Positions 3,384-40,382 of a DNA stretch of 41,827 nucleotides are shown piece by piece; positions within the stretch are counted from its first letter, which is position 1, and the number at the start of each line of letters is the position of its first letter. Location: the UHGV virus genome UHGV-0360402; one strand, given 5' to 3'. This DNA comes from a virus. The notes beneath the pieces are model-generated. The model saw nothing but the letters and a program-made list of their open reading frames with translations. It ran no database searches and was not told the origin of the DNA. The position numbers and the translations under genes were made by a program.

Positions 3384-3480
3384 GGTAACCACCGTTTATT
3401 GTGCATAAAAACCCCCTTAGAAGATGAGGTCCATCATACACAATAAACCATTTACGGATAATAATTACCTAAACTTGGTC

Positions 3481-6132: not shown

Positions 6133-6236
6133 GTTAAATCTCCAGATAGTCGCAGCACCCGTTGCGCCGCATATCTGGTTATTCTATTACCTGAAAAACC
6201 ACATATGGATAGATAATCCATAAATACGAAAAGATA

Positions 6237-6251: not shown

Positions 6252-6290
6252 TTTGCAAAACGTGCTGGATAGCAAACAAATTATTTGCTA

Positions 6291-6306
6291 CTGTATAAAT
6301 ATACAG
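6291..6306 (+). promoter_or_regulatory. LexA (SOS) box CTGTATAAATATACAG
   Basis: CTGT-N8-ACAG with AT-rich centre, 18/20 to TACTGTATATATATACAGTA; 22 bp upstream of ATG 6328. Confidence 0.8.
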
Positions 6307-6327
6307 TTATTGCATGGAGAAGATAAG

Positions 6328-6585
6328 ATGCAGCAGTATCACTATCCACTGGAAGACGGATTTACCGAAAGGATTCACACGCCGGGAGGCGTCAGGTCAC
6401 TGGTGGAGGGATCGCACTTGATGAAATTACTCCGGGATCTCGATAAGGATGGATTTAATGTCGATGGCCCACTTGCCGAACTGACTGCACTGATTAACTA
6501 CGTCACCAGCTCACAGATGTCTATGCGGGATCTGCAAACACATCTCGACTATTGTGCCGAACAATTACGAAAACAAACCCGGTAA
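6328..6585 (+). CDS. Small SOS-controlled protein (85 aa), stand-alone copy of the C-terminal module shared by the two antirepressor genes; candidate antirepressor
   Basis: GGAGA RBS; LexA box in promoter; alignable to C-termini of 7736-8392 and 9256-10194 products (LM-LL-DG-AELT-RD-QTH). Confidence 0.7.
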   Translation: MQQYHYPLEDGFTERIHTPGGVRSLVEGSHLMKLLRDLDKDGFNVDGPLAELTALINYVTSSQMSMRDLQTHLDYCAEQLRKQTR

Positions 6586-7356: not shown

Positions 7357-7371
7357 TTACCTTAAAGGTAA
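7357..7371. promoter_or_regulatory. Operator-like palindrome TTACCttaaaGGTAA
   Basis: Perfect half-sites; between divergent genes 6608-7336 and 7736-8392. Confidence 0.6.
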
Positions 7372-7449
7372 TATCTTGCTTTCAGGTGATCAAGCGTTAA
7401 ACGCAATCAACCAAATACGGTTGATTTTAATATTTCTTCGCGTTTATCA

Positions 7450-7464
7450 TTACCTTTGCGGTAA
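7450..7464. promoter_or_regulatory. Operator-like palindrome TTACCtttgcGGTAA
   Basis: Perfect half-sites; abuts candidate promoter TTACAT-18-TAGTAA at 7467-7496. Confidence 0.6.
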
Positions 7465-7497: not shown

Positions 7498-7577
7498 CGG
7501 GCACTGGCAAAATCCAGTGCCGGGATTGGTCTCCCGGATTACTAAGTGGCGCATACCACGCCAGACGTGGTTTTTTT
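7498..7577 (+). ncRNA. Candidate small RNA or terminated leader upstream of antA-like gene
   Basis: Promoter-like elements 7467-7496; two stable hairpins (gcactgg/ccagtgc; cggga/tcccg) then terminator hairpin ccacg/cgtgg plus T7; the overlapping 110-aa ORF lacks an RBS. Confidence 0.4.
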
Positions 7578-7735
7578 ATGCGTATAGCACAGTCATGCCA
7601 GAATTATGGTGGGCTGAATGGGGGTCCGAAAGGACGCCGGTACCACTTAGGCCGGTAAGACCAACTCCGTTCAGTTCACCACCATCTGATTGGTCTCAGC
7701 GGTGGTGATGTAATTCGCTAAGTGGAGACGCCATC

Positions 7736-8392
7736 ATGAACGCTCAACTCATCCCCGTATTCAACGGCACTATATCTAACGAAACAGCCCTACTTTGTAA
7801 TGCCCGCGATCTGCACGCTTTTTTAGGTGTTAAAAAGGTGTTTGCAGCATGGATTACAAATCGCATATCAGAATACGAATTCATTGAAAATCAAGACTAT
7901 ATTTTGCTTTCCAATTTGGGAAAGCAAACATCTGGTAGAGGCGGCCACAACCGCAAAGAGTACCACCTCACCCTTGATACAGCCAAAGAGCTGGCGATGG
8001 TCGAGCGTAACGAAAAAGGTCGCCAGGTGCGACGCTACTTCATTGAATGCGAGAAACGTTTAAGACAACAAGAAACAAAAGTGGAGAAGGTCTTGTCAGG
8101 CTTCATGCCCGCCATTATGGAGGCGATCAAGCTGGAAGACAAAAAAGAATACAGCGCCCCACTGAAGCCCGGCTACCGTAGCCTGATTCATTCGCCGTCT
8201 GGTGTTCTCGGCCTGACGGAGAACTCACTGCTGATGAATTTGCTGAACCAGTTACAGGAAGACGGGCACGACGTATCGGGCGCGGCGGCGGAACTGACCA
8301 CCATGTTCTGCTACATCGTCGGTGTGAGCAAATGCCTGCGTGATATCCAGACCCACGCGGAGTACATCAACGACAAGGCAGGGTTCTTCTGA
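7736..8392 (+). CDS. Antirepressor-type protein: AntA-like N-terminal domain fused to shared C-terminal module (218 aa)
   Basis: GGAG RBS; N-terminus matches AntA-type pattern ([39 protein letters not shown]); C-terminal 78 aa near-identical to C-terminus of 9256-10194 product. Confidence 0.8.
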
Positions 8393-8416: not shown

Positions 8417-8464
8417 CTTTAAATAATTCTGTACGATTGCAGACTGGGGGTGAATAGCGTACTA

Positions 8465-8479
8465 TTACCTTAAAGGTAA
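8465..8479. promoter_or_regulatory. Operator-like palindrome TTACCttaaaGGTAA
   Basis: Identical to site at 7357; overlaps -10 of candidate promoter TTGCAG-17-TACTAT (8437-8465). Confidence 0.6.
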
Positions 8480-24409: not shown

Positions 24410-24706
24410 TCACTCCTGTTCACTGGCCTCTTTGGCCATCTTCAAATACTGTTCAGGGCAATGCGCCATAACGCGCTGAAACAGTTCCAACGCCAGATTG
24501 CGTTGCCCCTCATTAAATGCCATTGCCATAGCGTCCATCGGTGAGATAGCGGAAAACACACGGCCTTTCTCCAGCACCGACCAGACAACGCGACGCCCCT
24601 GTTCACTGCTCATGACAAAGCGAATGTCATCAATTTCACGCTGCGCCATGTCACGTTGCTTACGGGCGTTTTCTTCTTTCAGTTGATCGTCTTCGTAATC
24701 TGTCAT
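24410..24706 (-). CDS. Hypothetical acidic protein (98 aa) between portal and scaffold
   Basis: ATGA overlap with portal stop. Confidence 0.5.
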   Translation of the reverse strand: MTDYEDDQLKEENARKQRDMAQREIDDIRFVMSSEQGRRVVWSVLEKGRVFSAISPMDAMAMAFNEGQRNLALELFQRVMAHCPEQYLKMAKEASEQE

Positions 24707-26382
24707 TGTGATTGCCCACCCTGACCACTAACTGCATTCGCCATAGCTGACAAAACACTCGGATCCGAAGTTTTAGCTTCGCTTAGCGTCTTGGCACCCT
24801 GTGCCGCCGCCATCCCCATCGCCATCATTTGTTGCTGCTGTTGCTGCTGTGCCCGTTGCTGGCGAGCCTGCTCAACCTGTTCCTGCGGAACAATGACGGT
24901 TGGAGACACTCCGGACATATCAGCGAATGCATCGATCGCCTGATCAACGTTGAGTTTGTCGAGAGCTTCTGGTTTCGCTTGCGCAAGTTGACCAATGAAG
25001 TTAACCGTGGACGCCAGACTGGACAGGCCGATAGACTTCTGCGCCTGAGCCATGACGGAAATGTATTCGACCTTCAGGGGCATGCCTTCCATCGCGTCAG
25101 GCGGTGGCGGCAGCATGTTTTTACGCACCATCATCGAGAAAGCGCGGTCAATGAGAGGATTAAGACATTCGTCGTTCAGACGCTCCAGAACCGGCCCCAA
25201 CATCAGAAGTTTTTCTTCTTTCATTTCGATCACCGCTTCAACAGGCATCGAGCGGGTATTGATGTTCTGCAACATCATGAACAGATCGACAAAGTAGGCG
25301 CTGTTAATGATTTGACGAGTGTCCTGAATGTCTGCCACCAAATCTGCTGTACTGGGGTTAACCAGATAAGCAGGCCTGAAGCCATCCTGACCAGTAATCT
25401 GATCGATATACGTGATGTCGCCAGGAAGAAGGGAGGCGCGCTGATTCTTGAGGGAAGTCGGAGCAACCATCGGCGGATTGGTGGCTTTATCAATCAACTG
25501 CGACTTGCGCTTCTGGAGAAGCTGCAATGCCTTAACAGGTCCAAGCGCCAGCATACCCGGGCATGATGATCCATAAACATCTTCGCCGTTAACTTCCCAG
25601 CGCGGAGCCATAATTGGAAACTCATCGAATCCGGACTCACGCAACAACTTGTCGTTATCGCCACCAATCTCGTAATAAACCGATTTGAATGGCTTGTTCT
25701 TGCTATCCAGCTTCGATGTATCACGGTCAATGTTCGGGTAAACCGAATGCATCACTTCAATCCACTTCTCGTAGGTGCCGCTTTCCCACATGCTTTTTAC
25801 GGATTCGCTGACGTTATTTAGCCCGAACTCCTGAACAAGCTGACGAACAGTCATAGAGAACTTGCGAAAACAGGTGTCCACACTGCCACGAGGTGAGTTA
25901 GCCAGGTAGTAACTGCCTATCGGGAATGGCATTGTGCGAATGATGTCCTCGTCATCCTCCAGCACTGCCATTGCACCAGTGCTGTATGTGCCGAGGCTTC
26001 CGTATAACTGCGGCAGCGACTGATAGAGATTCGACTTATTGAACATATCGTTCATGCGGTTCTGCACCGCCTCAAGCCACAACTTAACAGGGCCATAATC
26101 CATCATTTCAGGATCTGGCGTAGCCAGGCGAAACCACGGACGCGCGGGGCTTGTGATGCCTGACATCATGCCGCTGGCGAGAGTGCGCGCCGCCATAGTC
26201 CCGGTCGAATCAATAATGCGTGTATTGCGTCGATCGTTACGGTTGACCTCAGAAGTCAGAAAGCGGGAACCACGCGGATTGATGTAATCACTCAACTCGC
26301 GCCAGTGCGGCTCGAACGACTGACGCTCGCTTTCAAGTTGTGCGAACTGTTTGTTCAATCGCTCTTTAGTTGTTTCCGCCAT
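24703..26382 (-). CDS. Portal (head-to-tail connector) protein (559 aa)
   Basis: GGAG RBS; Q/A/M-rich C-terminal tail and overall pattern resemble T7 gp8-type connectors; precedes scaffold and capsid. Confidence 0.75.
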   Translation of the reverse strand: MAETTKERLNKQFAQLESERQSFEPHWRELSDYINPRGSRFLTSEVNRNDRRNTRIIDSTGTMAARTLASGMMSGITSPARPWFRLATPDPEMMDYGPVKLWLEAVQNRMNDMFNKSNLYQSLPQLYGSLGTYSTGAMAVLEDDEDIIRTMPFPIGSYYLANSPRGSVDTCFRKFSMTVRQLVQEFGLNNVSESVKSMWESGTYEKWIEVMHSVYPNIDRDTSKLDSKNKPFKSVYYEIGGDNDKLLRESGFDEFPIMAPRWEVNGEDVYGSSCPGMLALGPVKALQLLQKRKSQLIDKATNPPMVAPTSLKNQRASLLPGDITYIDQITGQDGFRPAYLVNPSTADLVADIQDTRQIINSAYFVDLFMMLQNINTRSMPVEAVIEMKEEKLLMLGPVLERLNDECLNPLIDRAFSMMVRKNMLPPPPDAMEGMPLKVEYISVMAQAQKSIGLSSLASTVNFIGQLAQAKPEALDKLNVDQAIDAFADMSGVSPTVIVPQEQVEQARQQRAQQQQQQQMMAMGMAAAQGAKTLSEAKTSDPSVLSAMANAVSGQGGQSQ

Positions 26383-26603: not shown

Positions 26604-26693
26604 ATCAATGACTCCGTACGCAATTAAATTATTACCAATTTAACCACATATGATTTATCTATCGTAGATAGTTGACATTTAACGCACGAATTA

Positions 26694-27030: not shown

Positions 27031-27107
27031 GTGGCATTAGCTCAGTTGGACAGAGCAACCGCCTTCTAAGCGGTTGGTCGCAGGTTCGAATCCTGCATGC
27101 CACGCCA
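27031..27107 (+). tRNA. tRNA-Arg (anticodon UCU)
   Basis: Full cloverleaf folds by hand: 7-bp acceptor stem, D stem gctc/gagc, anticodon stem accgc/gcggt with loop cuUCUaa (anticodon 27065-27067), T arm gcagg-TTCGAAT-cctgc, encoded CCA. Confidence 0.9.
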
Positions 27108-29291: not shown

Positions 29292-29893
29292 TGATTGCCA
29301 TCCTGACGTTCTTTGAGTCGCTTCCTGGCTGCTGCTATGCGATCAGCAATTGTCACATTCACATTAACATCCAGGCGTTCTTTGAATGCGTTGACGTCGA
29401 CGTGCTTACCAATCAGTTCGAGGTTCTTCACCTTGTCAGGCCATTTAATTTTTTTGAGGATTGTCTCTATCGAATCCTCGTTCATGTTCATGATGGTCGA
29501 TGACAGATCAAAGCCACTAAGCGTAGTGCGCCAGATTTTCGGCCACTCGCGGATTGGCTTAAGGCTCCCATCGTCGTTGAGGATATCGATCACGTCCATC
29601 TGGTCGATCTCCACCAGGCGCATGAGAACGTAATCAGCACTGACGCGCATTCGTTTGTTGCGCTCCTCCATCAACTCGGCAATCCGTTTTTGAATGCGTT
29701 CATCGCGCATCATGACACTGGCTTTAACTGCCGCTGTATTTGGGGAGAATCCTGCGTTAATCGCTGCCTGAGTCTGGTTTTCAGGCGTTTTGATGTATGA
29801 CTGGCAATAAGCCTCCTGCATTGCTGTGAGCGGCTTAAATTGCGTTGATTTGCGTTTATAGGTTTTAGGTTCAGCAGGCATCATAACCACCAT
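29288..29893 (-). CDS. Terminase small subunit
   Basis: Immediately upstream of and coupled to terL; start taken at ATG 29893 (alternatives 29884/29881); the ORF-track TTG 29962 start would put an operator inside the coding sequence. Confidence 0.65.
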   Translation of the reverse strand: MVVMMPAEPKTYKRKSTQFKPLTAMQEAYCQSYIKTPENQTQAAINAGFSPNTAAVKASVMMRDERIQKRIAELMEERNKRMRVSADYVLMRLVEIDQMDVIDILNDDGSLKPIREWPKIWRTTLSGFDLSSTIMNMNEDSIETILKKIKWPDKVKNLELIGKHVDVNAFKERLDVNVNVTIADRIAAARKRLKERQDGNQ

Positions 29894-29901
29894 GGTAATA
29901 G

Positions 29902-29916
29902 TTACCGTTGTGGTAA
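29902..29916. promoter_or_regulatory. Operator-like palindrome TTACCgttgtGGTAA upstream of terS
   Basis: Perfect half-sites, flanked by direct GGTAATAG repeats. Confidence 0.55.
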
Positions 29917-29958
29917 TAGTACCATGCAAAATAAAGCCGCCATAGTTGGCGGCAGTAT

Positions 29959-30180: not shown

Positions 30181-30192
30181 GTGACATGTCAC
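30181..30192. repeat. 12-bp palindrome GTGACATGTCAC (copy 3 of 3)
   Basis: Exact; overlaps stop of 30189-30527 gene; preceded by TAACACC. Confidence 0.8.
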
Positions 30193-30527
30193 ACTATTAA
30201 TTTCGTTTCATGCCAGCCTTTAGTCACCCAGCATTGCGAGTCACCATTACACGGGCATGAATTTACAGGAACTCTCTCGCCGCACTTACCGCAACGTTTT
30301 CTGCTGATCGATTTTATACGCCCGTGCACGCGTGCATCATCCTGGCGGATCAGTAACGCTATATACTCACCAAATTCGTAAGGCGCACGCCCGGGGCGAC
30401 GCGTGGCACAGTTACGCTCCAGCATTTCAATTTCCTGAGCATCAAGCACAATCTCCAGCTTACGCACACCAGATGCAGCTTGTCTGGCTCTCTGAGCGGC
30501 TTTGCGCTCTGCTGCTGATTTAGCCAT
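30189..30527 (-). CDS. Hypothetical protein with C-terminal Cys cluster (112 aa)
   Basis: AGGA RBS; basic N-terminus; CGKCG...CPCNGDSQC motif; last gene before the late block. Confidence 0.5.
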
Positions 30528-32621: not shown

Positions 32622-33235
32622 TTTTGCTCGCCTCCCTGTTCTTCCAGAAAAATGCGCATAGTCTCAAGCATCTCTTCGGTGTCATACGGTGACAACTTGT
32701 CACGCAGGATGTGTTCAATGCTGTTAATGAACTTTCGGATTGCTTTGCGTTCAATTTCAGTCAGGAAAGCATCGGTGGCTGGGGTTTCCGGCAATAATCC
32801 GCCAACCAGTTCTATTTCTGTTCTGAACCGGGAACTAGACACAACGCGATAAGTCAGGTTCGGCATTCTGGCTGCCACTTGCATCTCAAACTCCTCTCCA
32901 GATTCCAGCCCGGCTTCATGGGCGTAATCAAGCGGGCTTCTGACAGGCTCTGAAGCTTCGCCGCCCCAGTAAATCAGGTTCGACTTCAGCCCCGCATTCT
33001 CCGCTGCCAGCGTCGAAAACTTCTCGTGTGCCAACTTAACAGCTGCATCAGCCTGCTTAATTGACTCAATCGCTCTCTGGTGGTCTTCGGCCAGCTCATT
33101 AGCACGCACCAACTGAACTTCCAGTTGCGCTGCCAAACAGCGAACAAGCACGGATGGTGCGCCTGTCATGTCGTCAGCTAACGCATGCCCTGATGCCACT
33201 AAATCTTTGATCATACCTTCAGCCATACTTTCCAT
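32618..33235 (-). CDS. Hypothetical protein (205 aa)
   Basis: ATG 33235; coiled-coil segments. Confidence 0.5.
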   Translation of the reverse strand: MESMAEGMIKDLVASGHALADDMTGAPSVLVRCLAAQLEVQLVRANELAEDHQRAIESIKQADAAVKLAHEKFSTLAAENAGLKSNLIYWGGEASEPVRSPLDYAHEAGLESGEEFEMQVAARMPNLTYRVVSSSRFRTEIELVGGLLPETPATDAFLTEIERKAIRKFINSIEHILRDKLSPYDTEEMLETMRIFLEEQGGEQK

Positions 33236-33296
33236 CTTTACCCTCGCTTATCCACATAACTTATTGATTACATTGATAACTAAAAAGATCGTCGAT

Positions 33297-33641
33297 TCAG
33301 AACTCTTCGATGTTCCAGCCACCACCTGCTTTCTTTGGTTTAACCGTTACCCCGATGATTCGGAACGGATACTGATCTGCGGCGACTTTGGTTTTCACCC
33401 TGGCGTCGTCGGTCCAGAAACCTTTCACTTCGTGCAGTTCCATCTCGCCGGTGGCGAGCATCACAGCAAAATCGGGCGTATAGAACGTGTTGTCAGCTAA
33501 CCGCAACTTGATACCCTCAAATCGATACCAGACGATTCCCCCTGCACGTTTACGCTGCTCAAGGTGCTGGCAATACGCAGATTCTGTTTTGTTCATCTGG
33601 CCTGTTTTGAGTCGACCAAGAGCCTGTATCTGTTTTCTCAT
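33297..33641 (-). CDS. DUF1064-like phage protein (114 aa)
   Basis: GAGGT RBS overlapping operator at 33645; motifs YCQHLE...FYTPDF...HEVKG. Confidence 0.55.
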   Translation of the reverse strand: MRKQIQALGRLKTGQMNKTESAYCQHLEQRKRAGGIVWYRFEGIKLRLADNTFYTPDFAVMLATGEMELHEVKGFWTDDARVKTKVAADQYPFRIIGVTVKPKKAGGGWNIEEF

Positions 33642-33644
33642 GAT

Positions 33645-33659
33645 TTACCTCTAAGGTAA
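33645..33659. promoter_or_regulatory. Operator-like palindrome TTACCtctaaGGTAA
   Basis: Perfect half-sites; overlaps RBS of 33297-33641. Confidence 0.55.
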
Positions 33660-33706
33660 TTAAAAACCACATAAGACACGAAATCAATAGAGTTTAGAAT
33701 ATTTTG

Positions 33707-33721
33707 TTACCCAACAGGTAA
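33707..33721. promoter_or_regulatory. Operator-like palindrome TTACCcaacaGGTAA
   Basis: Perfect half-sites; just downstream of terminator after P-like gene. Confidence 0.55.
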
Positions 33722-33733
33722 TTGTAGAGACGT

Positions 33734-33753
33734 AAAAAAATGCGCTATCGCGC
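33734..33753 (-). terminator. Rho-independent terminator after P-like gene
   Basis: gcgc-gata-gcgc stem plus ATTTTTTT on minus strand, 6 nt after stop. Confidence 0.65.
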
Positions 33754-33758
33754 TGGTA

Positions 33759-34559
33759 TTACTTGATAAATCCTGCCGCCTTTCCCCGCCTGTATTCCTC
33801 CATCAGCCACTGCGCCGGTGTTATTCCCCCAAGGGTGGCGGCGTTAGGCATGCACCCGAAACTTCTCCCTGGTGGATGGTAAACGTCTCTCCCTGTGCCC
33901 GGAGGTGTACTCATGGGCTCTGGCTTTGCCTGTATGCTGATCACCGGATCGGGTATCTGCTGTCCGGAAGCCACCTTTTTCGCCCAATCATCGAGCAGCC
34001 TGCGCGCGTGTTTCTCAACCTCAATCTCGCTAAGCTGGCGCTGATACATTGCACGGCGGGTATCACATACGACCCAGTACATAACCGGATGTCGCCACGG
34101 GAATCTTTCGGGACCACCAGGATATAAACTTTTTTCCTTGCTGTACCGGTGAAACTCCGCCATCACATCATCAATGGTGACGCCAAGAACCATCTTGCTG
34201 TCTTTACACCACTTGATGAATTGCCCTGGCGACGGCCAGAACGGAGACTCACTGGCGCGGGCGTGGCGCATACCAGCAGAAACCTGTTCACGGGTTCGGA
34301 TCCCCCCTTCGGCAAACGCAGCAATCCACTGCTGTTTTGCAGCAACTTCCTGCTCTGGCGTCTTCAGGTTGGTTACCACTGCCGCCGGAAACAGTTGTTT
34401 CAGCTGTTTGAAAAGGGCATCAACAAGCCTCTCTGCTGACATGTTCACCACGTTGTCATTGTTGGTGTACTGATGCTCATAACCTGACATGCGAGAAAGG
34501 GCTTCTCCGTCACGGTTTTGTATCGCGGTAAAAACGTTGTTCACAAGAAATCCTCCCAT
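33759..34559 (-). CDS. Replication protein P-like helicase loader (266 aa)
   Basis: QWIAAFAEGGIRTREQVSAGMRHARASESPFWPSPGQFIKWCKD aligns with lambda P core QWVLAFRENGITTMEQVNAGMRVARRQNRPFLPSPGQFVAWCRE; start could be later. Confidence 0.8.
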   Translation of the reverse strand: MGGFLVNNVFTAIQNRDGEALSRMSGYEHQYTNNDNVVNMSAERLVDALFKQLKQLFPAAVVTNLKTPEQEVAAKQQWIAAFAEGGIRTREQVSAGMRHARASESPFWPSPGQFIKWCKDSKMVLGVTIDDVMAEFHRYSKEKSLYPGGPERFPWRHPVMYWVVCDTRRAMYQRQLSEIEVEKHARRLLDDWAKKVASGQQIPDPVISIQAKPEPMSTPPGTGRDVYHPPGRSFGCMPNAATLGGITPAQWLMEEYRRGKAAGFIK

Positions 34560-35332
34560 GCTTCAGGGCTGTTCCAGTGCGGAACGTTGTTATCAGGTAA
34601 TGTTGATTGCTTCTGTCTGCTAATCTGCAGCCGCCTTGCCAGCTTCTGCTCCCACTGTGCCTGATGGTATGCCTTACCCTCAGCCATCCAGTAAATTCTG
34701 AACTCTGCAAGTTCCTGTGCCGTTGGCAGACTGTCCAGGTAGATCCCCTGCAATGAGCTTTTCCGAAGAAAGTCATCTGATGGCTGCCATTGTTCATGCA
34801 TGACAAATTTGCCTAATTGCCCTGGCCCACCAGGAGGAACAAAGTTATTCATCACGGCGTTGTTTGCGCCGGGGTCATGATGCACAGAATCCCCGGTTTT
34901 TGTCCTGCTCTCCCTCTCTTGGTTAAATGACTGGTTATATGACTGGTTCTGGATCCCGTTTTTGGGATCATTCAACATCCCGTTTTTGGGTATATTCCAG
35001 TTTTCGGGAACATTACCGTTTTCGGGTTCATTACACCCTTCTAGGTTGCCTTTAATGTTCCCTTTTTTGGTTATATTAAGAGAGAAAACCCGCACTCTTT
35101 TCGTCGCTCCCTTTCTCTCTCCGGTATCTGAAATAAGCCCCATTTTCATGAGCGATATAAGCCCGGCCTGTACGGTTTTTTTATTCAGGCAAGTGTCTTT
35201 AACGAGGCGTTCTATGCTTGGGTAGCAGAGGTTATATTCATCGGCTCTGTCAGCCATCGAGAGCAGTATGAGCTTTAATGACGAGCTACCTGGATCTGTC
35301 TCCCAGGCCCAATCTGTTGCATGTCTGCTCAT
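34541..35332 (-). CDS. Replication initiation protein: N-terminal HTH, C-terminal DnaT-like domain (263 aa)
   Basis: GGAGA RBS; central Asn/Gly-rich linker; C-terminal DSLPTAQELAEFRIYWMAEGKAYHQAQWEQKLARRLQ matches DnaT-type domain; upstream of P-like gene. Confidence 0.7.
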   Translation of the reverse strand: MSRHATDWAWETDPGSSSLKLILLSMADRADEYNLCYPSIERLVKDTCLNKKTVQAGLISLMKMGLISDTGERKGATKRVRVFSLNITKKGNIKGNLEGCNEPENGNVPENWNIPKNGMLNDPKNGIQNQSYNQSFNQERESRTKTGDSVHHDPGANNAVMNNFVPPGGPGQLGKFVMHEQWQPSDDFLRKSSLQGIYLDSLPTAQELAEFRIYWMAEGKAYHQAQWEQKLARRLQISRQKQSTLPDNNVPHWNSPEAWEDFL

Positions 35333-35347
35333 GATTAATCTCCGCTA

Positions 35348-35548
35348 TCAGCTTGAATGTTGTGGGGAGGAATTAATCATGATCTGCTTAATCTCTGCCC
35401 TGATGCGACGGTTTGATTCCATGGTGCACTCAACACAGTGTCCGTTGTAAACCCAGCGTTCACTGTCATGTCCGTGCTTACATGGTTTTCCGGTGTAGTA
35501 GCGTTTAAGTCCGCGCTTTGCGGCATCAATACGTGTAATGATTTCCAT
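35348..35548 (-). CDS. Small Cys/His-rich hypothetical protein (about 66 aa)
   Basis: ATG 35548 (longer TTG version unlikely); CKHGH...HCVEC; downstream of operator 35629. Confidence 0.45.
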   Translation of the reverse strand: MEIITRIDAAKRGLKRYYTGKPCKHGHDSERWVYNGHCVECTMESNRRIRAEIKQIMINSSPQHSS

Positions 35549-35628
35549 GGTAAGCCCTGTTATTAGTATTGGGATTACGGTTATTTTGTGCTGACACAAA
35601 AAAAAGATCAACCAGATTTGGTTTTTTA

Positions 35629-35643
35629 TTACCTTTTAGGTGC
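35629..35643. promoter_or_regulatory. Operator-like site TTACCttttaGGTGC
   Basis: Two mismatches in right half; lies after the terminator that follows the cro-like gene. Confidence 0.45.
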
Positions 35644-35650
35644 GAATAGA

Positions 35651-35677
35651 TATGAAAAGACCGCCGGATGGCGGTCT
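35651..35677 (-). terminator. Terminator-like hairpin after cro-like gene
   Basis: agaccgcc-ggat-ggcggtct stem then T-rich run on minus strand. Confidence 0.5.
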
Positions 35678-35698
35678 ACAGAGGGTTGTGGCTGGATA

Positions 35699-35929
35699 TC
35701 ATGAGTAGAAGAAGTATGCCAGTTCTGCTTTTGAGCGCAGCCATTGTCTTGTTTTACAGGCTTTAAAAAGCCCATTCATCAATACCTTACCTGGCATTTT
35801 GCGCTTACCTGTTAAGTGAGTCTGGATATAGTGACTCGTCGTTCCGGCTTCCTGTGCGAAGGCTTCACGCTCATCCGGAGTAAGTGCAAGCCAGTGCTTT
35901 TTGAAATCGAAATGTCCGTTATCGCTCAT
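35699..35929 (-). CDS. Cro-like small HTH regulator (76 aa)
   Basis: Divergent from repressor gene across triple-operator region; first gene of leftward early operon. Confidence 0.6.
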   Translation of the reverse strand: MSDNGHFDFKKHWLALTPDEREAFAQEAGTTSHYIQTHLTGKRKMPGKVLMNGLFKACKTRQWLRSKAELAYFFYS

Positions 35930-35965
35930 AGCTATTGCCTGATATTTATTTCAGATAATAAATAT

Positions 35966-36028
35966 TCACCCATAAGGTAACAAAAATCAAGGATAGTTAC
36001 CTATGGGGTGCATTTACCTGTTGGGTAA
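35966..36028. promoter_or_regulatory. Tripartite operator region between cro-like and repressor genes
   Basis: Three sites: TCACCcataaGGTAA (35966-35980), TTACCtatggGGTGC (35997-36011), TTACCtgttgGGTAA (36014-36028); overlap a candidate leftward promoter. Confidence 0.65.
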
Positions 36029-36083
36029 TATTGCTTTAAATTGAATCATCTACTGATTCATATATGAGGCGATTTTCCAGAAA

Positions 36084-36668
36084 ATGAAAAGTATCCAGGA
36101 CGTCCGCAGGCAAAATCTCAACGACTTGATCGACCGTGAATTCAATGGTGTTCAGACGCGGATGGCAGAAAAACTTGGAACTCAGGCAAATCTGGTAAAC
36201 CGCTGGGCTCTTGGCAAGAAGGTTATCGGCGACCAGGTTGCGCGAAAAATTGAAGCTGCCGCCAATAAACCCCGTAACTGGCTTGATATCGATCGCTCGC
36301 TTTCTCAGGAAGGTTTTCAGCCTGTCGGCCCAAGCGACATTGGTCAGCTGGCAGCTCACAACCTGGAACGCTGGATGAGTGAAAGCCGCGACCTTTCAAC
36401 TCAGGGAAAACTTCACCGCGCATCCGGCGTCGCCCAGGTGACAATAAGCCGCCTGTTAAACAATGAGGTCAGCGTTTCCATTTCCACCCTGGAGAATGTT
36501 GCATCTGCATTCGGGCGTCACGGATATGAACTACTGATTCATCCACATGACCCTGCAACTATCAACTATGACCGCTCGCGCTACGCATTGTTACCTGAAA
36601 CAGAGAAGGCAAAGATCGAAAGTTACATTGAATTTGTCATCAACCAGAACGAAAAAAACAAACAATAA
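36084..36668 (+). CDS. Prophage repressor candidate (194 aa), HTH, no S24 peptidase domain
   Basis: N-terminal HTH (GVQTRMAEKLGTQANLVNRWALGKK) and second HTH-like segment; no Ser/Lys autocleavage motifs; divergent from cro-like gene; own terminator. Confidence 0.65.
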   Translation: MKSIQDVRRQNLNDLIDREFNGVQTRMAEKLGTQANLVNRWALGKKVIGDQVARKIEAAANKPRNWLDIDRSLSQEGFQPVGPSDIGQLAAHNLERWMSESRDLSTQGKLHRASGVAQVTISRLLNNEVSVSISTLENVASAFGRHGYELLIHPHDPATINYDRSRYALLPETEKAKIESYIEFVINQNEKNKQ

Positions 36669-36688
36669 AATCATATTTTTCAGTAAGT

Positions 36689-36713
36689 AAGCCGCCTTAT
36701 GGCGGCTTTTTTA
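36689..36713 (+). terminator. Rho-independent terminator after repressor gene
   Basis: aagccgcc-ttat-ggcggctt plus T6. Confidence 0.85.
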
Positions 36714-36725
36714 TTGCCTGTTCGA

Positions 36726-36740
36726 TTACCTAACGGGTAA
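36726..36740. promoter_or_regulatory. Operator-like palindrome TTACCtaacgGGTAA
   Basis: Perfect half-sites; upstream of -35 of rightward early promoter. Confidence 0.6.
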
Positions 36741-36759
36741 TTTTTTTAACTCATATCTA

Positions 36760-36788
36760 TTGACATCAAACCAGATACGCATAATTAT
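36760..36788 (+). promoter_or_regulatory. Candidate rightward early promoter TTGACA-17-AATTAT
   Basis: Consensus -35; -10 overlaps operator at 36788. Confidence 0.55.
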
Positions 36789-36802
36789 TACCTCAACGGT
36801 AA
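36788..36802. promoter_or_regulatory. Operator-like palindrome TTACCtcaacGGTAA
   Basis: Perfect half-sites; overlaps -10 and start region. Confidence 0.6.
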
Positions 36803-36821
36803 CAGACCGAGGTAACAAGTT

Positions 36822-36974
36822 ATGCAGTGGAAAATCATCAACGGTTGGTACTGCGTTACTGCATGCGGATTCATGAGCTGGAAGTTCCGCACCTTACAGG
36901 AAGGCATTAAGTGGGCTTTCGTCAGCAAAGAAGCTCTCGATGTAGCCAACGATAACGAGATATGGGAGGGCTGA
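36822..36974 (+). CDS. Small hypothetical protein (50 aa), first gene of rightward operon
   Basis: GAGGT RBS; below ORF-track cut-off. Confidence 0.4.
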   Translation: MQWKIINGWYCVTACGFMSWKFRTLQEGIKWAFVSKEALDVANDNEIWEG

Positions 36975-36976
36975 TA

Positions 36977-37276
36977 ATGAACGTTAATCAGCAGAAAAAT
37001 CTTCAAAAAATCATGCTGGCATTCGACAAGGACTACCGCCTGTCAGAACAGCTATATGACCGACAAGTTGAACTGATTGAGAGCATCCGACTTCATCAAC
37101 TGTCCTCAACTTTCGACGTTGTAACAGTTAAAGGCGTTCGCCAGGAAGTACTGGAGGCTGCTAAAGACAGCCCTGAGTTCGAAGAACTGATGGATGCCTA
37201 TCGGCGAGAGGCAATGGCAATTATCGCCCGCTGGGATCTGGCGGATCAGCTTGATGGACAGAGGGACGCGGCATGA
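36977..37276 (+). CDS. Hypothetical protein (99 aa) upstream of exonuclease
   Basis: GGGAGGG RBS before ATG 36977; ATGA-coupled to exonuclease gene. Confidence 0.55.
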   Translation: MNVNQQKNLQKIMLAFDKDYRLSEQLYDRQVELIESIRLHQLSSTFDVVTVKGVRQEVLEAAKDSPEFEELMDAYRREAMAIIARWDLADQLDGQRDAA

Positions 37277-39081: not shown

Positions 39082-39330
39082 ATGAAAGGTGCATTAGGTA
39101 AGAAGGAACTCCTGGCGGTGGTGCCACTGTCATGGAGCACTATCGACCGTATGGAGCGCGCAGGGGAATTTCCTAAACGCTGGTATATCACCGATAAACG
39201 CTGCGCATGGAACCGTGATGAAGTTGAGCGTTGGCTTGATGAACGTCAGGCAGCAAGTCCAGCAGAGTTCCAGGGTAAAAAGCCTCCTGTTCAGCAACGT
39301 GTATATCGTCCTGTGAGCAACGCTGCATGA
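39082..39330 (+). CDS. AlpA-family HTH regulator / putative excisionase (82 aa)
   Basis: GAGAGG RBS; LSWSTIDRMERAGEFPKR...WNRDEVERWL matches AlpA/Vis-type winged helix. Confidence 0.65.
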   Translation: MKGALGKKELLAVVPLSWSTIDRMERAGEFPKRWYITDKRCAWNRDEVERWLDERQAASPAEFQGKKPPVQQRVYRPVSNAA

Positions 39331-39439: not shown

Positions 39440-39739
39440 GTGAGAAAGTTAAGCCGACTTGAAAAATATCACATGAATAAGGTTTCAATGCGCAGTCCGT
39501 CAAAGATTGTCGCCGTTACTCCTGCGGCGATAGAGATCGAAAAACGCGCGATTGAAAGAGAGAAAAAAGGGCAGTTCCGCATTGCCGCTCACCTTTGGCT
39601 TCAGTGTATGGATGTTGCTTCTGGTGATGTTGAGCGTGCAAGGATCGCGGTTCGCAGGGACCAATGTATCACAAAAGGTAACGGCCTTCGCCGTGGCGAC
39701 TATAGCGGCATAGGATGTTGTGGTGTGGTTTATGACTAA
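39440..39739 (+). CDS. PerC-like transcriptional regulator (start uncertain: GTG 39440 or ATG 39473)
   Basis: AIEREKKGQFRIAAHLWLQCMDV...RDQC pattern resembles PerC family. Confidence 0.5.
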   Translation: MRKLSRLEKYHMNKVSMRSPSKIVAVTPAAIEIEKRAIEREKKGQFRIAAHLWLQCMDVASGDVERARIAVRRDQCITKGNGLRRGDYSGIGCCGVVYD

Positions 39740-40382
39740 GAAATACACACTAATCTATGCAGATCCACCCTGGGTATACCGGGACAAAGCCGCAGATGGT
39801 AATCGCGGTGCCGGTTTTAAATATCCGGTTATGAGTGTGCTGGATATCTGCCGCCTTCCTGTGTGGGATTTGGCCGATGAAAACTGTCTGTTGGCCATGT
39901 GGTGGGTGCCAACACAACCACTCGAAGCACTAAAAGTTGTTGAAGCCTGGGGATTTCGTCTGATGACGATGAAGGGCTTCACGTGGATAAAATGTGGTAG
40001 TCGACAACCAGATAAACTGGTTATGGGTATGGGACACATGACTCGCGCCAATAGTGAAGATTGCCTGTTTGCAGTAAAGGGAAAACTACCTCCACGCATT
40101 AATGCAGGGATCGTTCAGTCATTTACCGCACCGCGGCTTGAGCATTCAAGAAAACCAGATGTCGTTCGTGAAAAACTTGTGCAATTGTTAGGCGATGTTT
40201 CTCGCATTGAACTGTTCGCCCGCCAGTCGTCTCATGGCTTCGATGTTTGGGGTAATCAGTGCGAAGACCCGGCAGTGCAACTACACCCTGGATACGTGTT
40301 GGATATTGCCAGATTAACAAATGCATTCAGCAATGCTCCGCTGTCACCAACAGACAACCAGGGACGGGAGCGTGCAGCATGA
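39732..40382 (+). CDS. MT-A70-family DNA N6-adenine methyltransferase (216 aa)
   Basis: ATG 39732 (MTKKYTLIYADPPW); DPPW catalytic motif. Confidence 0.8.
   Translation: MTKKYTLIYADPPWVYRDKAADGNRGAGFKYPVMSVLDICRLPVWDLADENCLLAMWWVPTQPLEALKVVEAWGFRLMTMKGFTWIKCGSRQPDKLVMGMGHMTRANSEDCLFAVKGKLPPRINAGIVQSFTAPRLEHSRKPDVVREKLVQLLGDVSRIELFARQSSHGFDVWGNQCEDPAVQLHPGYVLDIARLTNAFSNAPLSPTDNQGRERAA

Follow-up and report, generated by a model that had tools for sequence, protein, structure and literature searches.

The closest described counterpart of the locus analysed here is the Rep-Ant switch of the phages SPC32H, epsilon15 and phiV10. Related strategies of repressor control are known from more distant phages. 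The C1 repressor of phage P1 directly controls many separate operons via dispersed operators, including an immI-type operon that comprises the c4 RNA and ant. The stoperators that are bound by gp71 of mycobacteriophage L5 are asymmetric and orientation-dependent, lie inside transcribed regions and block elongation. A preprint that cites Kim et al. 2016 reports that Rep binds DNA in tetrameric form and that one tetramer is enough for repression (bioRxiv 10.1101/2021.09.07.459249). Another study describes the tetramerisation domain of SPC32H Rep as sharing its fold with the DNA-looping domain of pLS20 Rco (PMC9986798). In phage ZX5, overexpression of a Rep protein identical to the one described below reduced endolysin and holin transcripts by more than 99.9% (PMC9782041).

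The window, i.e., the whole stretch of 41,827 nucleotides that was analysed, is a phiV10/epsilon15-type (Uetakevirus) prophage. Its gene order agrees with the phiV10 and epsilon15 records, and its DNA is 97-98% identical to phiV10, PAS61 and BP9 over 3.8 kb. The region of interest is read on the minus strand and starts with a cro-like gene (35699-35929; 76 aa; phrog_35, 'transcriptional repressor'), which corresponds to phiV10 p41 and epsilon15 gp39. It continues with a gene for a small, Cys-rich, gp40-like protein of 66 aa (35348-35548; phrog_1081, function unknown; phiV10 p42) and with the replication genes (33759-35332), which are DnaT/O-like (34541-35332) and lambda-P-like (33759-34559) according to the phiV10 annotation of p43 and p44. 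A DUF1064 gene (33297-33641; PF06356) opens the next transcription unit. A preliminary description of the sequence spoke of a leftward early operon, but this merely reflects the orientation of the window; in lambda terms, it is the PR-type cro-O-P operon.

The hairpins and repressor sites in this region are probably the standard boundaries of separately repressed transcription units that are already annotated for epsilon15/phiV10-type prophages, and the design is readable from the existing GenBank annotation of these two phages. The phiV10 record carries both the post-cro and the post-P hairpin as terminators, and the epsilon15 record contains repressor sites ahead of terS, the late operon, the tailspike gene and PL, as well as at the post-replication junction. 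The prophage shares its operator sequence with the SPC32H/epsilon15/phiV10 switch, its scattered operators lie at the positions marked in the epsilon15 record and its terminators at those marked in the phiV10 record. Nothing essential differs, and the present prophage adds two larger antirepressor modules (isrK/C4-ant and sar-ant).

The prophage repressor Rep (36084-36668, plus strand) is a 194 amino acid long protein with two HTH regions and no peptidase domain. Its residues 1-190 align to the SPC32H repressor (PDB 5D50_A, E = 4e-42), which identifies it as a full-length homologue, and Pfam recognizes HTH domains only and no S24 self-cleaving peptidase domain, as in repressors of the SPC32H type. 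Copies that are 100% identical are present in 80 viral contigs. Three operators between rep and cro (35966-35980, 35997-36011 and 36014-36028) constitute OR, and three operators are also found at the equivalent position in epsilon15 and SPN1S. Small Ant, the product of 6328-6585, matches PDB 5D50_E (E = 1.4e-46), and the LexA box TACTGTATAAATATACAGTT ahead of its gene (6289-6308) marks it as a LexA-controlled antirepressor.

The perfect operator TTACC-N5-GGTAA occurs 10 times in the window, while 0.01 copies are expected (0 of 100 shuffles). All 10 copies are intergenic or located at gene starts, and they are scattered over the whole prophage. The same motif is the top hyphenated palindrome in nine other genomes, i.e., Tyrion, epsilon15, SPN1S and six enterobacterial prophages, and the Rep proteins of these six prophages are 41-78% identical to Rep of the window. 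Every full-length Rep relative that was found, down to 41% identity, has this operator, and no enriched palindrome accompanies five Rep homologues that consist of the N-terminal domain only (Paraburkholderia, Hydrogenovibrio, Thiomicrospira). The sites thus combine the properties of an operator set: an over-represented palindrome, location at promoters, positions kept in 10 genomes, constrained half-sites and free spacers. Operator-like sites with two mismatches are frequent by chance, with 12 expected in the window. At PL, the DUF1064 promoter, terS and the isrK promoter, a -10 hexamer that ends in AT continues into the TACC of the operator. The distances between paired operators (31, 62 and 93 bp) correspond to integral helical turns, and the conserved pairing at 62 bp is consistent with tetramer binding by Rep.

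The preliminary description had linked operators to the hairpins after the cro-like and the P-like gene; it missed that the motif is prophage-wide and that the order of terminator and operator recurs after rep and before terS. After rep (36689-36802, plus strand), a terminator (36689-36708) is followed by operators at 36726-36740 and 36788-36802. Their distance is 62 bp in the window and ranges from 61 to 63 bp across all 10 genomes, and the PL promoter at this position, on the same strand, has a -35 TTGACA (36760) and a -10 AATTAT (to 36788). Before terS (29884-29953, minus strand), a terminator (29936-29953) precedes operators at 29902-29916 and 29884-29898, and an extended -10 element, TGgTACTAT, adjoins the first of them. 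Both hairpins are strong, canonical terminators in the same hairpin-then-operator order. The lysis promoter of this prophage contains a half operator only.

At the junction between the P-like and the DUF1064 gene, the hairpin that had been noted at 33734-33753 on the minus strand is present as described, albeit with a stem of only 4 bp, whereas an intrinsic terminator is expected to have a GC-rich stem of at least 5 bp with a U-tract directly behind it. It consists of GCGC-GAUA-GCGC (33742-33753), followed by A and U7 (33734-33740), and is best regarded as a weak putative intrinsic terminator: its -5.9 kcal/mol fold is no better than those of shuffled sequences (z = -1.3) and it was not called by a generic terminator scan. 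The stem and the U7 tract are invariant in 10 related genomes and the loop is variable. A perfect operator (33707-33721) begins 12 nt past the U-tract, and its positional equivalent in the epsilon15 record is annotated as 'protein_bind repressor' (35906-35922). Among 56 close variants, its half-sites are invariant and its N5 spacer is free. A second perfect operator (33645-33659) lies 74 nt past the U-tract, and the right half of this operator, GAGGTAA, serves as ribosome-binding site for the DUF1064 start codon (ATG at 33639-33641). The two operators are 62 bp apart from centre to centre, and this distance is 61-62 bp in 10 of 10 genomes. The claim that operator sites follow each hairpin within 60 bp therefore holds for the first post-P site and for the post-cro site, which lies 15 nt past its hairpin, but is slightly exceeded by the second post-P site.

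Between the two operators, a candidate promoter for the DUF1064 operon (33659-33687, minus strand) is formed by a -35 TTGATT (33682-33687), a 17-bp spacer and a -10 TTTAAT (33659-33664), which adjoins the downstream operator and does not have the usual A at position 2. CTATTGA, which includes the -35, and the A/T-rich -10 block are kept in 10 genomes, and the operator pair brackets the -35/-10 elements in a layout identical to PL in 10 of 10 genomes. The entire module, comprising the hairpin stem, U7, four half-sites, -35, -10 block and ribosome-binding site, is kept in 10 genomes, although the flanking genes vary between P-like and DnaT-like upstream, and between DUF1064 and RuvC-like downstream. 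Even between genomes with unrelated flanking genes, the mean column identity of this approximately 120-bp junction is 74%, and among the 56 close variants, variation is confined to the operator spacers and linker sequences. As operators flank conserved -35/-10 elements in the same way as at PL and are kept next to different neighbours, a separate Rep-repressed promoter at this junction is well supported by comparative sequence evidence. A generic promoter scan called neither this candidate nor the post-cro one described below. It returned promoter-like matches on the plus strand at 33673-33700 and 35675-35702, both of which are treated as chance; the first was compared with relatives and is not kept in them.

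The hairpin after the cro-like gene was confirmed at 35658-35677, with a partly U-rich tail that extends the putative intrinsic terminator to 35648 (minus strand). Its sequence, AGACCGCC-AUCC-GGCGGUCU, forms an 8-bp stem with six GC pairs, and its predicted fold of approximately -15 kcal/mol (z = -3.9) is matched by none of 200 shuffles. The tail, UUUUCAUAUCU, is only moderately U-rich and its U-tract is interrupted. All 10 genomes have a hairpin here, built from four different stem sequences, but the tail contains few U residues in half of them (epsilon15 type). Since the U-tract is missing there, the hairpin may not terminate transcription in the epsilon15 type. The operator that follows (35629-35643) is degenerate and reads TTACCTTTTAGGTGC, or GCACC-N5-GGTAA on the minus strand, with two mismatches. 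Because such sites are common by chance, it is not significant alone, and the case for it comes from comparison: the GGTAA half does not change across 10 genomes, and among phages whose repressor is identical, approximately 40% of the sequence variants have a version with one mismatch, GTACC-N5-GGTAA. OR2 contains the same GGTGC variant half-site. A second conserved palindrome, AACCAGATTTGGTT (35610-35623), which belongs to the family AACCATATATGGTT/CATATnnGGTT, is nearly invariant in 10 genomes. It is accompanied by a candidate gp40-O-P promoter (35583-35611, minus strand) with a -35 TTGATC (35606-35611), a 17-bp spacer and a -10 CAAAAT (35583-35588). The agreement of this candidate with the consensus is limited to 8 of 12 positions. 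All 10 genomes share TTGAT and AAAAT, whereas the spacer differs between them. In the phiV10 type, the half-operator downstream of the candidate either varies or is missing. Because the conserved palindrome and a weak promoter-like pair come after the invariant GGTAA half, a promoter at the cro/gp40 junction is plausible, but the case is weaker than at P/DUF1064.

From the sites, their conservation and spacing and the homology of the repressor, all of which were computed here, we infer termination efficiency, promoter activity and looping in the following scheme. With a probability of about 0.6, the hairpin-plus-operator clusters are boundaries between separate Rep-controlled transcription units, each of which is freed upon Rep release, and antitermination is not required. 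The hairpin at each boundary would end or attenuate the upstream transcript, and the next element would be a promoter controlled by Rep, a probably tetrameric repressor of the SPC32H type that is predicted to recognise TTACC-N5-GGTAA. At P/DUF1064 and PL, one operator is placed approximately 20 bp upstream of the -35, and the second, 62 bp or six helical turns away, adjoins the -10 and would cover the transcription start, and at P/DUF1064 also the ribosome-binding site. One Rep tetramer probably bridges both operators, which would shut the promoter. The cro/gp40 boundary would represent a weaker version, with one degenerate operator, the second conserved palindrome and a weak -35/-10 pair. Once an antirepressor inactivates Rep, PR, PL, possibly gp40-O-P, the DUF1064 operon, terS, the late genes, tailspike/lysis and the ant operon would each be freed at their own promoter, and antitermination would therefore not be required.

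It was proposed previously that either every segment has its own repressible promoter or an antitermination mechanism is needed. The first option is well supported at P/DUF1064 and less so at cro/gp40, and nothing was found that supports the second. The early ORFs do not match any N-like or Q-like family in Pfam, PHROG or NCBIfam, no nut-, qut- or put-like element was found, and Rfam gave nothing relevant for 33000-37200, where a permissive threshold added chance-level matches only, on the rep terminator. These searches bear out the initial impression that no lambda-N-like or Q-like antiterminator is recognisable. The only candidate put forward by position was a basic, Cys-rich protein of 112 aa, whose gene (30189-30527, minus strand) is among the last of the DUF1064 operon and precedes terS by two genes. 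It matches phrog_536, 'transcriptional regulator' (E = 1.5e-54), but no antiterminator family, and thus stands as an uncharacterised putative regulator only. It has no match in Pfam, NCBIfam or PDB, all of the 120 listed among its 720 homologues are named 'hypothetical', and its AlphaFold2 model is poor (pLDDT 56.6). A strand-helix-helix secondary structure only hints at a ribbon-helix-helix domain. The 82-aa PF05930 'AlpA' protein of the PL operon (39082-39330) was considered as an antiterminator of the Pseudomonas AlpA type and rejected. Its only match is 8C3T, a small protein labelled 'AlpA family phage regulatory protein', and even at E values of up to 10 it did not match the chain of any antiterminator. 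AlpA of Pseudomonas aeruginosa is a much larger, eight-helix, Q-like antiterminator, with residues cited to at least 142, that binds an element between -35 and -10 (PMC9371919). More likely, the 82-aa protein is the excisionase partner of a P4-type integrase.

It is unlikely, in our estimate, that internal promoters are absent and that cro, gp40, O, P, DUF1064 and the genes beyond are all transcribed from PR. Polymerase would then pass the hairpins because they are leaky, or with the help of a phage factor or RNA element that escaped recognition, and the extra operators would serve only as auxiliary or looping elements, or would reinforce repression in the lysogen as roadblocks. The weak stems or poor U-tracts of the hairpins and the low consensus match of the internal promoter candidates would agree with this, as would the distance of approximately 2.3 kb between the post-replication operators and OR, which is similar to the lambda OL-OR distance, the conserved phrog_536 protein at the end of the operon and the second palindrome at lytic junctions. 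Against it stand the negative family and Rfam searches for N-, Q- or put-like elements and the lack of relationship between the 82-aa protein and Pseudomonas AlpA. In addition, the 112-aa protein would be of no help in the first round of transcription through the hairpins, because its gene lies downstream of both, and the PL-like bracketing of conserved -35/-10 elements in 10 of 10 genomes would be superfluous for a pure looping site or roadblock. Quite improbable is a role of the hairpins mainly as 3'-end stabilising or processing structures or as conserved module boundaries used for recombination between mosaic phages, with the operators belonging to the next promoter; the conservation of the P/DUF1064 junction amid unrelated genes, the U-poor tail of the structurally conserved post-cro hairpin in half of the genomes and the RNase III sites in other intergenic regions of the epsilon15 record would fit, but the perfect U7 directly after the post-P stem in all 10 genomes and the same hairpin-operator order at the strong, canonical terminators after rep and before terS argue for termination.

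Within the scheme of separate Rep-controlled units, the CATATnnGGTT family deserves attention. Copies are found at the post-cro junction, the DUF1064 promoter and the late, tailspike, lysis and isrK-ant promoter regions, where they adjoin or closely trail a Rep operator, and most of these regions are without a recognisable -35. A fixed distance from the -10 was considered, but the distances are inconsistent and, therefore, no mechanism is assigned. Tentatively, the motif may be the target of a phage-encoded factor that turns on or modifies delayed lytic units, which would add a temporal cascade to direct Rep control. Candidates for this factor are the 112-aa protein, the gp40-like protein of 66 aa and a PerC-like protein that the PL operon encodes.

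In comparison with other phages, this organisation resembles the dispersed-operator control by P1 C1, and a C4 RNA homologue is present at 7602-7686. In contrast, Rep is unrelated to C1, the operators are palindromic and not asymmetric 17-mers, and no Lpa-like late activator was identified in this prophage. As for the L5 stoperators, repressor sites are numerous and extend far beyond the immunity region, but here they are palindromic and located at promoters or gene starts, and not asymmetric, orientation-biased or within transcribed regions. The order of cro, terminator, replication genes, terminator and nin-like genes recalls lambda with tR1 and tR2, whereas equivalents of N, nut, Q and qut are missing and the terminators instead precede operators and a promoter-like element. 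The fold that SPC32H Rep shares with pLS20 Rco and the helical-turn spacing of the operators also link the system to loop-forming tetrameric repressors, such as Rco, PrgX and lambda CI at OL-OR, but the implied loop of 62 bp is very short.

Thus, a common prophage type of E. coli and Salmonella is organised unlike lambda. Each transcription unit of this prophage type appears to be under the direct lock of a single tetrameric repressor that is sensitive to an antirepressor, and because the hairpins would insulate the units from one another, no antitermination cascade would be needed. As the boundaries themselves are already annotated, the remaining value of the analysis lies in the strictly conserved 62-bp operator pairing and in the second promoter-associated motif. 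This organisation is relevant for predicting prophage expression in lysogens and after SOS induction.

Sequence identity and gene order place the window among the phiV10/epsilon15-type (Uetakevirus) prophages: the Escherichia phages phiV10, vB_EcoP_PAS61 and BP9 are 97-98% identical to it across 33200-37000, and its gene order agrees with the GenBank records of phiV10 and epsilon15. On the minus strand, the cro-like gene (35699-35929) is followed by a gp40-like gene for a 66-aa protein (35348-35548), a DnaT/O-like gene (34541-35332), a lambda-P-like gene (33759-34559), a DUF1064 gene (33297-33641), a run of small genes ending with a 112-aa gene (30189-30527) and a 77-aa gene, and, beyond these, terS and terL. 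The repressor gene rep (36084-36668) and the recombination/PL operon lie on the plus strand. The operon termed leftward early in the preliminary description is cro-O-P, and "leftward" reflects only the orientation of the window. The interval from terL to the late operon contains a tRNA gene (27031-27104, +; Rfam, 73 bits), encoded in the orientation opposite to that of the structural genes.

The operator motif TTACC-N5-GGTAA is borne out by ten perfect sites in the window, where chance would give 0.01, and it is dispersed across the entire prophage. Besides the sites at the P/DUF1064 and cro/gp40 junctions, operators are found between rep and cro (OR, three sites, 35966-36028), at PL (36726 and 36788), upstream of terS (29884 and 29902), the late operon (26694) and the tailspike gene (6237, adjoining a LexA-controlled ant gene), on both sides of the isrK-C4-ant operon promoter (7357 and 7450) and before a small ORF (8465). 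Among hyphenated palindromes, this motif also ranks first in frequency in Tyrion, epsilon15 and SPN1S and in six enterobacterial prophages with about 41-75% identical Rep proteins, and the operator positions are common to all of them. The epsilon15 record (AY150271.2) carries "protein_bind: repressor" before terS, the late operon, the tailspike gene and PL, and also at the equivalent of window position 33707 between the P-like and DUF1064 genes. Perfect sites at OR (33341-33402), at the downstream member of the post-replication pair (35969-35983) and at the lysis promoter (24704-24718) are unannotated there; the published operator set is therefore incomplete. Centre-to-centre spacings of 31, 62, 62 and 93 bp (35966-36028, 36726-36802, 33645-33721 and 7357-7464) are multiples of about three helical turns, and neighbouring sites at OR and at terS lie 17-18 bp from each other. 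Next to attP, upstream of int, three phage genomes share a conserved operator-like site with one mismatch (GTATTACCCTAAAGGTATA; 26882 in the epsilon15 record, 26986 in L004 and 28568 in L002); its equivalent is not visible in the integrated window.

Rep (194 aa) aligns over its full length to the SPC32H repressor (PDB 5D50, E = 4e-42). Passages in later papers, which relate these facts second-hand, describe SPC32H Rep as a tetramer in which DNA-binding domain pairs are drawn from different dimers and of which a single copy is enough for repression (bioRxiv 10.1101/2021.09.07.459249; PMC9986798). Overexpression of the Rep of phage ZX5, identical in sequence to that of the window, lowered endolysin and holin transcripts by >99.9% (PMC9782041). 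The prophage contains three antirepressor modules. In the first, a LexA box (6289-6308) precedes a small SPC32H-type Ant of 85 aa (6328-6585), whose match is the antirepressor chain of SPC32H (E = 1.4e-46). The second, P1 immI-like and with flanking Rep operators 93 bp apart, consists of isrK RNA (7501-7577), C4 RNA (7602-7686) and an Ant gene (7736-8392). In the third, which is P22 immI-like, sar RNA (10196-10263) lies beside a further Ant gene (9256-10194, -). The phrog_450 domain of the small Ant recurs as the C-terminal domain in each of the two large Ants.

The hairpins reported after the cro-like and P-like genes were both found, and the phiV10 record already lists putative rho-independent terminators at both positions. 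The element after the P-like gene (33742-33753) reads GCGC-GAUA-GCGC, followed by A and U7 (33734-33740); its stem has just 4 bp, and shuffled sequences fold equally well. Two perfect operators follow (33707-33721 and 33645-33659). In an alignment of ten genomes, about 120 bp at this junction are conserved as a module: a GCGC-N4-GCGC stem, A and U7, about 10 variable nt, operator 1, about 20 nt, CTATTGA (-35), a spacer of 17-18 bp, an A/T-rich -10, operator 2 abutting the latter, and the start codon, with the right half of operator 2, GAGGTAA, doubling as ribosome-binding site. The flanking genes vary, being P-like or DnaT-like upstream and DUF1064 or RuvC-like downstream. PL has the identical layout (operator, about 18 nt, TTGACA, 17 nt, AATTAT, operator), and the operator pairs are 61-62 bp apart at the P/DUF1064 junction and 61-63 bp apart at PL, centre to centre, in all ten genomes. 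In a set of 56 variant sequences, all from phages whose Rep is identical, changes are confined to N5 spacers and linkers, while half-sites, -35, -10 block, stem and U-tract are unchanged. Module conservation, spacing and variant pattern together make a good comparative case for a promoter under Rep control, the activity itself being deduced from them. A -10 hexamer ending in AT that runs straight into the operator TACC is a layout common to several promoters (36783-36792, 33655-33664, 29912-29921, 7445-7454 and 8460-8469; AATTAT-TACC, TTTAAT-TACC, TACTAT-TACC and TATCAT-TACC). The order of hairpin, about 10 nt and operator recurs at two further places, after rep (strong terminator 36689-36708, then the operator at 36726) and before terS (terminator 29936-29953, then 29902 and 29884), where an extended -10, TGgTACTAT, abuts the first operator.

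At the cro/gp40 junction, the hairpin (35658-35677, -) has an 8-bp stem (about -15 kcal/mol, z = -3.9) and a tail, UUUUCAUAUCU, that is U-rich in part only. All ten genomes have a GC hairpin here, with four different stem sequences, and its tail is U-rich solely in the phiV10-type half. The operator claimed downstream is present (35629-35643) but has two mismatches, and alone it falls short of significance, since chance predicts 12 sites of this kind. In its favour, the variant half GGTGC recurs in OR2, the GGTAA half is unchanged across the ten genomes, and about 40% of the variants from phages with identical repressor have a one-mismatch site. Four nt past this operator lies a palindrome that is nearly invariant (AACCAnATnnGGTT); after it come an invariant TTGATC, a T run and, 16-18 nt past TTGATC, an invariant AAAAT, which continues into the half operator TACC in six of the genomes compared. 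One reading of these elements is a weak promoter (-35 TTGATC, -10 CAAAAT; 8/12 consensus positions) with one and a half operators, the downstream half-site not being kept in the phiV10 type; the odds that a promoter lies here are roughly even. The Dam-type GATC within TTGATC (35606-35609) is invariant in 9/10 genomes, the exception being the Erwinia prophage with GATA. An adenine methylase is among the phage's own products (39720-40382), and methylation-sensitive activity of the candidate promoter is conceivable.

A second conserved quasi-palindrome, the AACCATATATGGTT family with the core CATATnnGGTT, occurs at lytic promoter regions. With at most one mismatch it has 20 matches against 9.3 expected, and its 14-mer form 7 against 1.7. 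It is found at the junction after cro, at the DUF1064 and isrK promoters and in the late, tailspike and lysis promoter regions (copies at 35610-35623, 33665-33675, 26642-26655, 6197-6210, 3446-3459 and 7409-7422). The perfect copies in epsilon15 and SPN1S are confined to the late, tailspike, lysis and post-cro regions and point in the direction of lytic transcription. The lysis promoter region of the window (3437-3470, -) directly adjoins the tailspike stop codon and retains just a GGTAAT half operator, the second motif and TATTGTGTATGATGG, whereas an upstream operator, complete or nearly so, is present at this position in Tyrion, epsilon15 and SPN1S.

The preliminary description had left a choice between separate repressible promoters and antitermination. 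The former is supported strongly at P/DUF1064 and moderately at cro/gp40. For the latter, no early ORF matched N-like or Q-like families in Pfam, PHROGs or NCBIfam, as had been noted from the sequence, and an Rfam search returned nothing relevant. For the 112-aa protein, which is conserved across the phage group and encoded downstream of the two hairpins, the match is phrog_536 "transcriptional regulator"; the 120 homologues among the matches listed are all named hypothetical, no PDB match was found and the structure model is poor. An 82-aa PF05930 "AlpA" protein was rejected as unrelated to the Pseudomonas AlpA antiterminator. Antitermination is neither needed nor supported, and the hairpins with their operators form regulatory punctuation that is standard for a known phage group and already annotated in its reference records.
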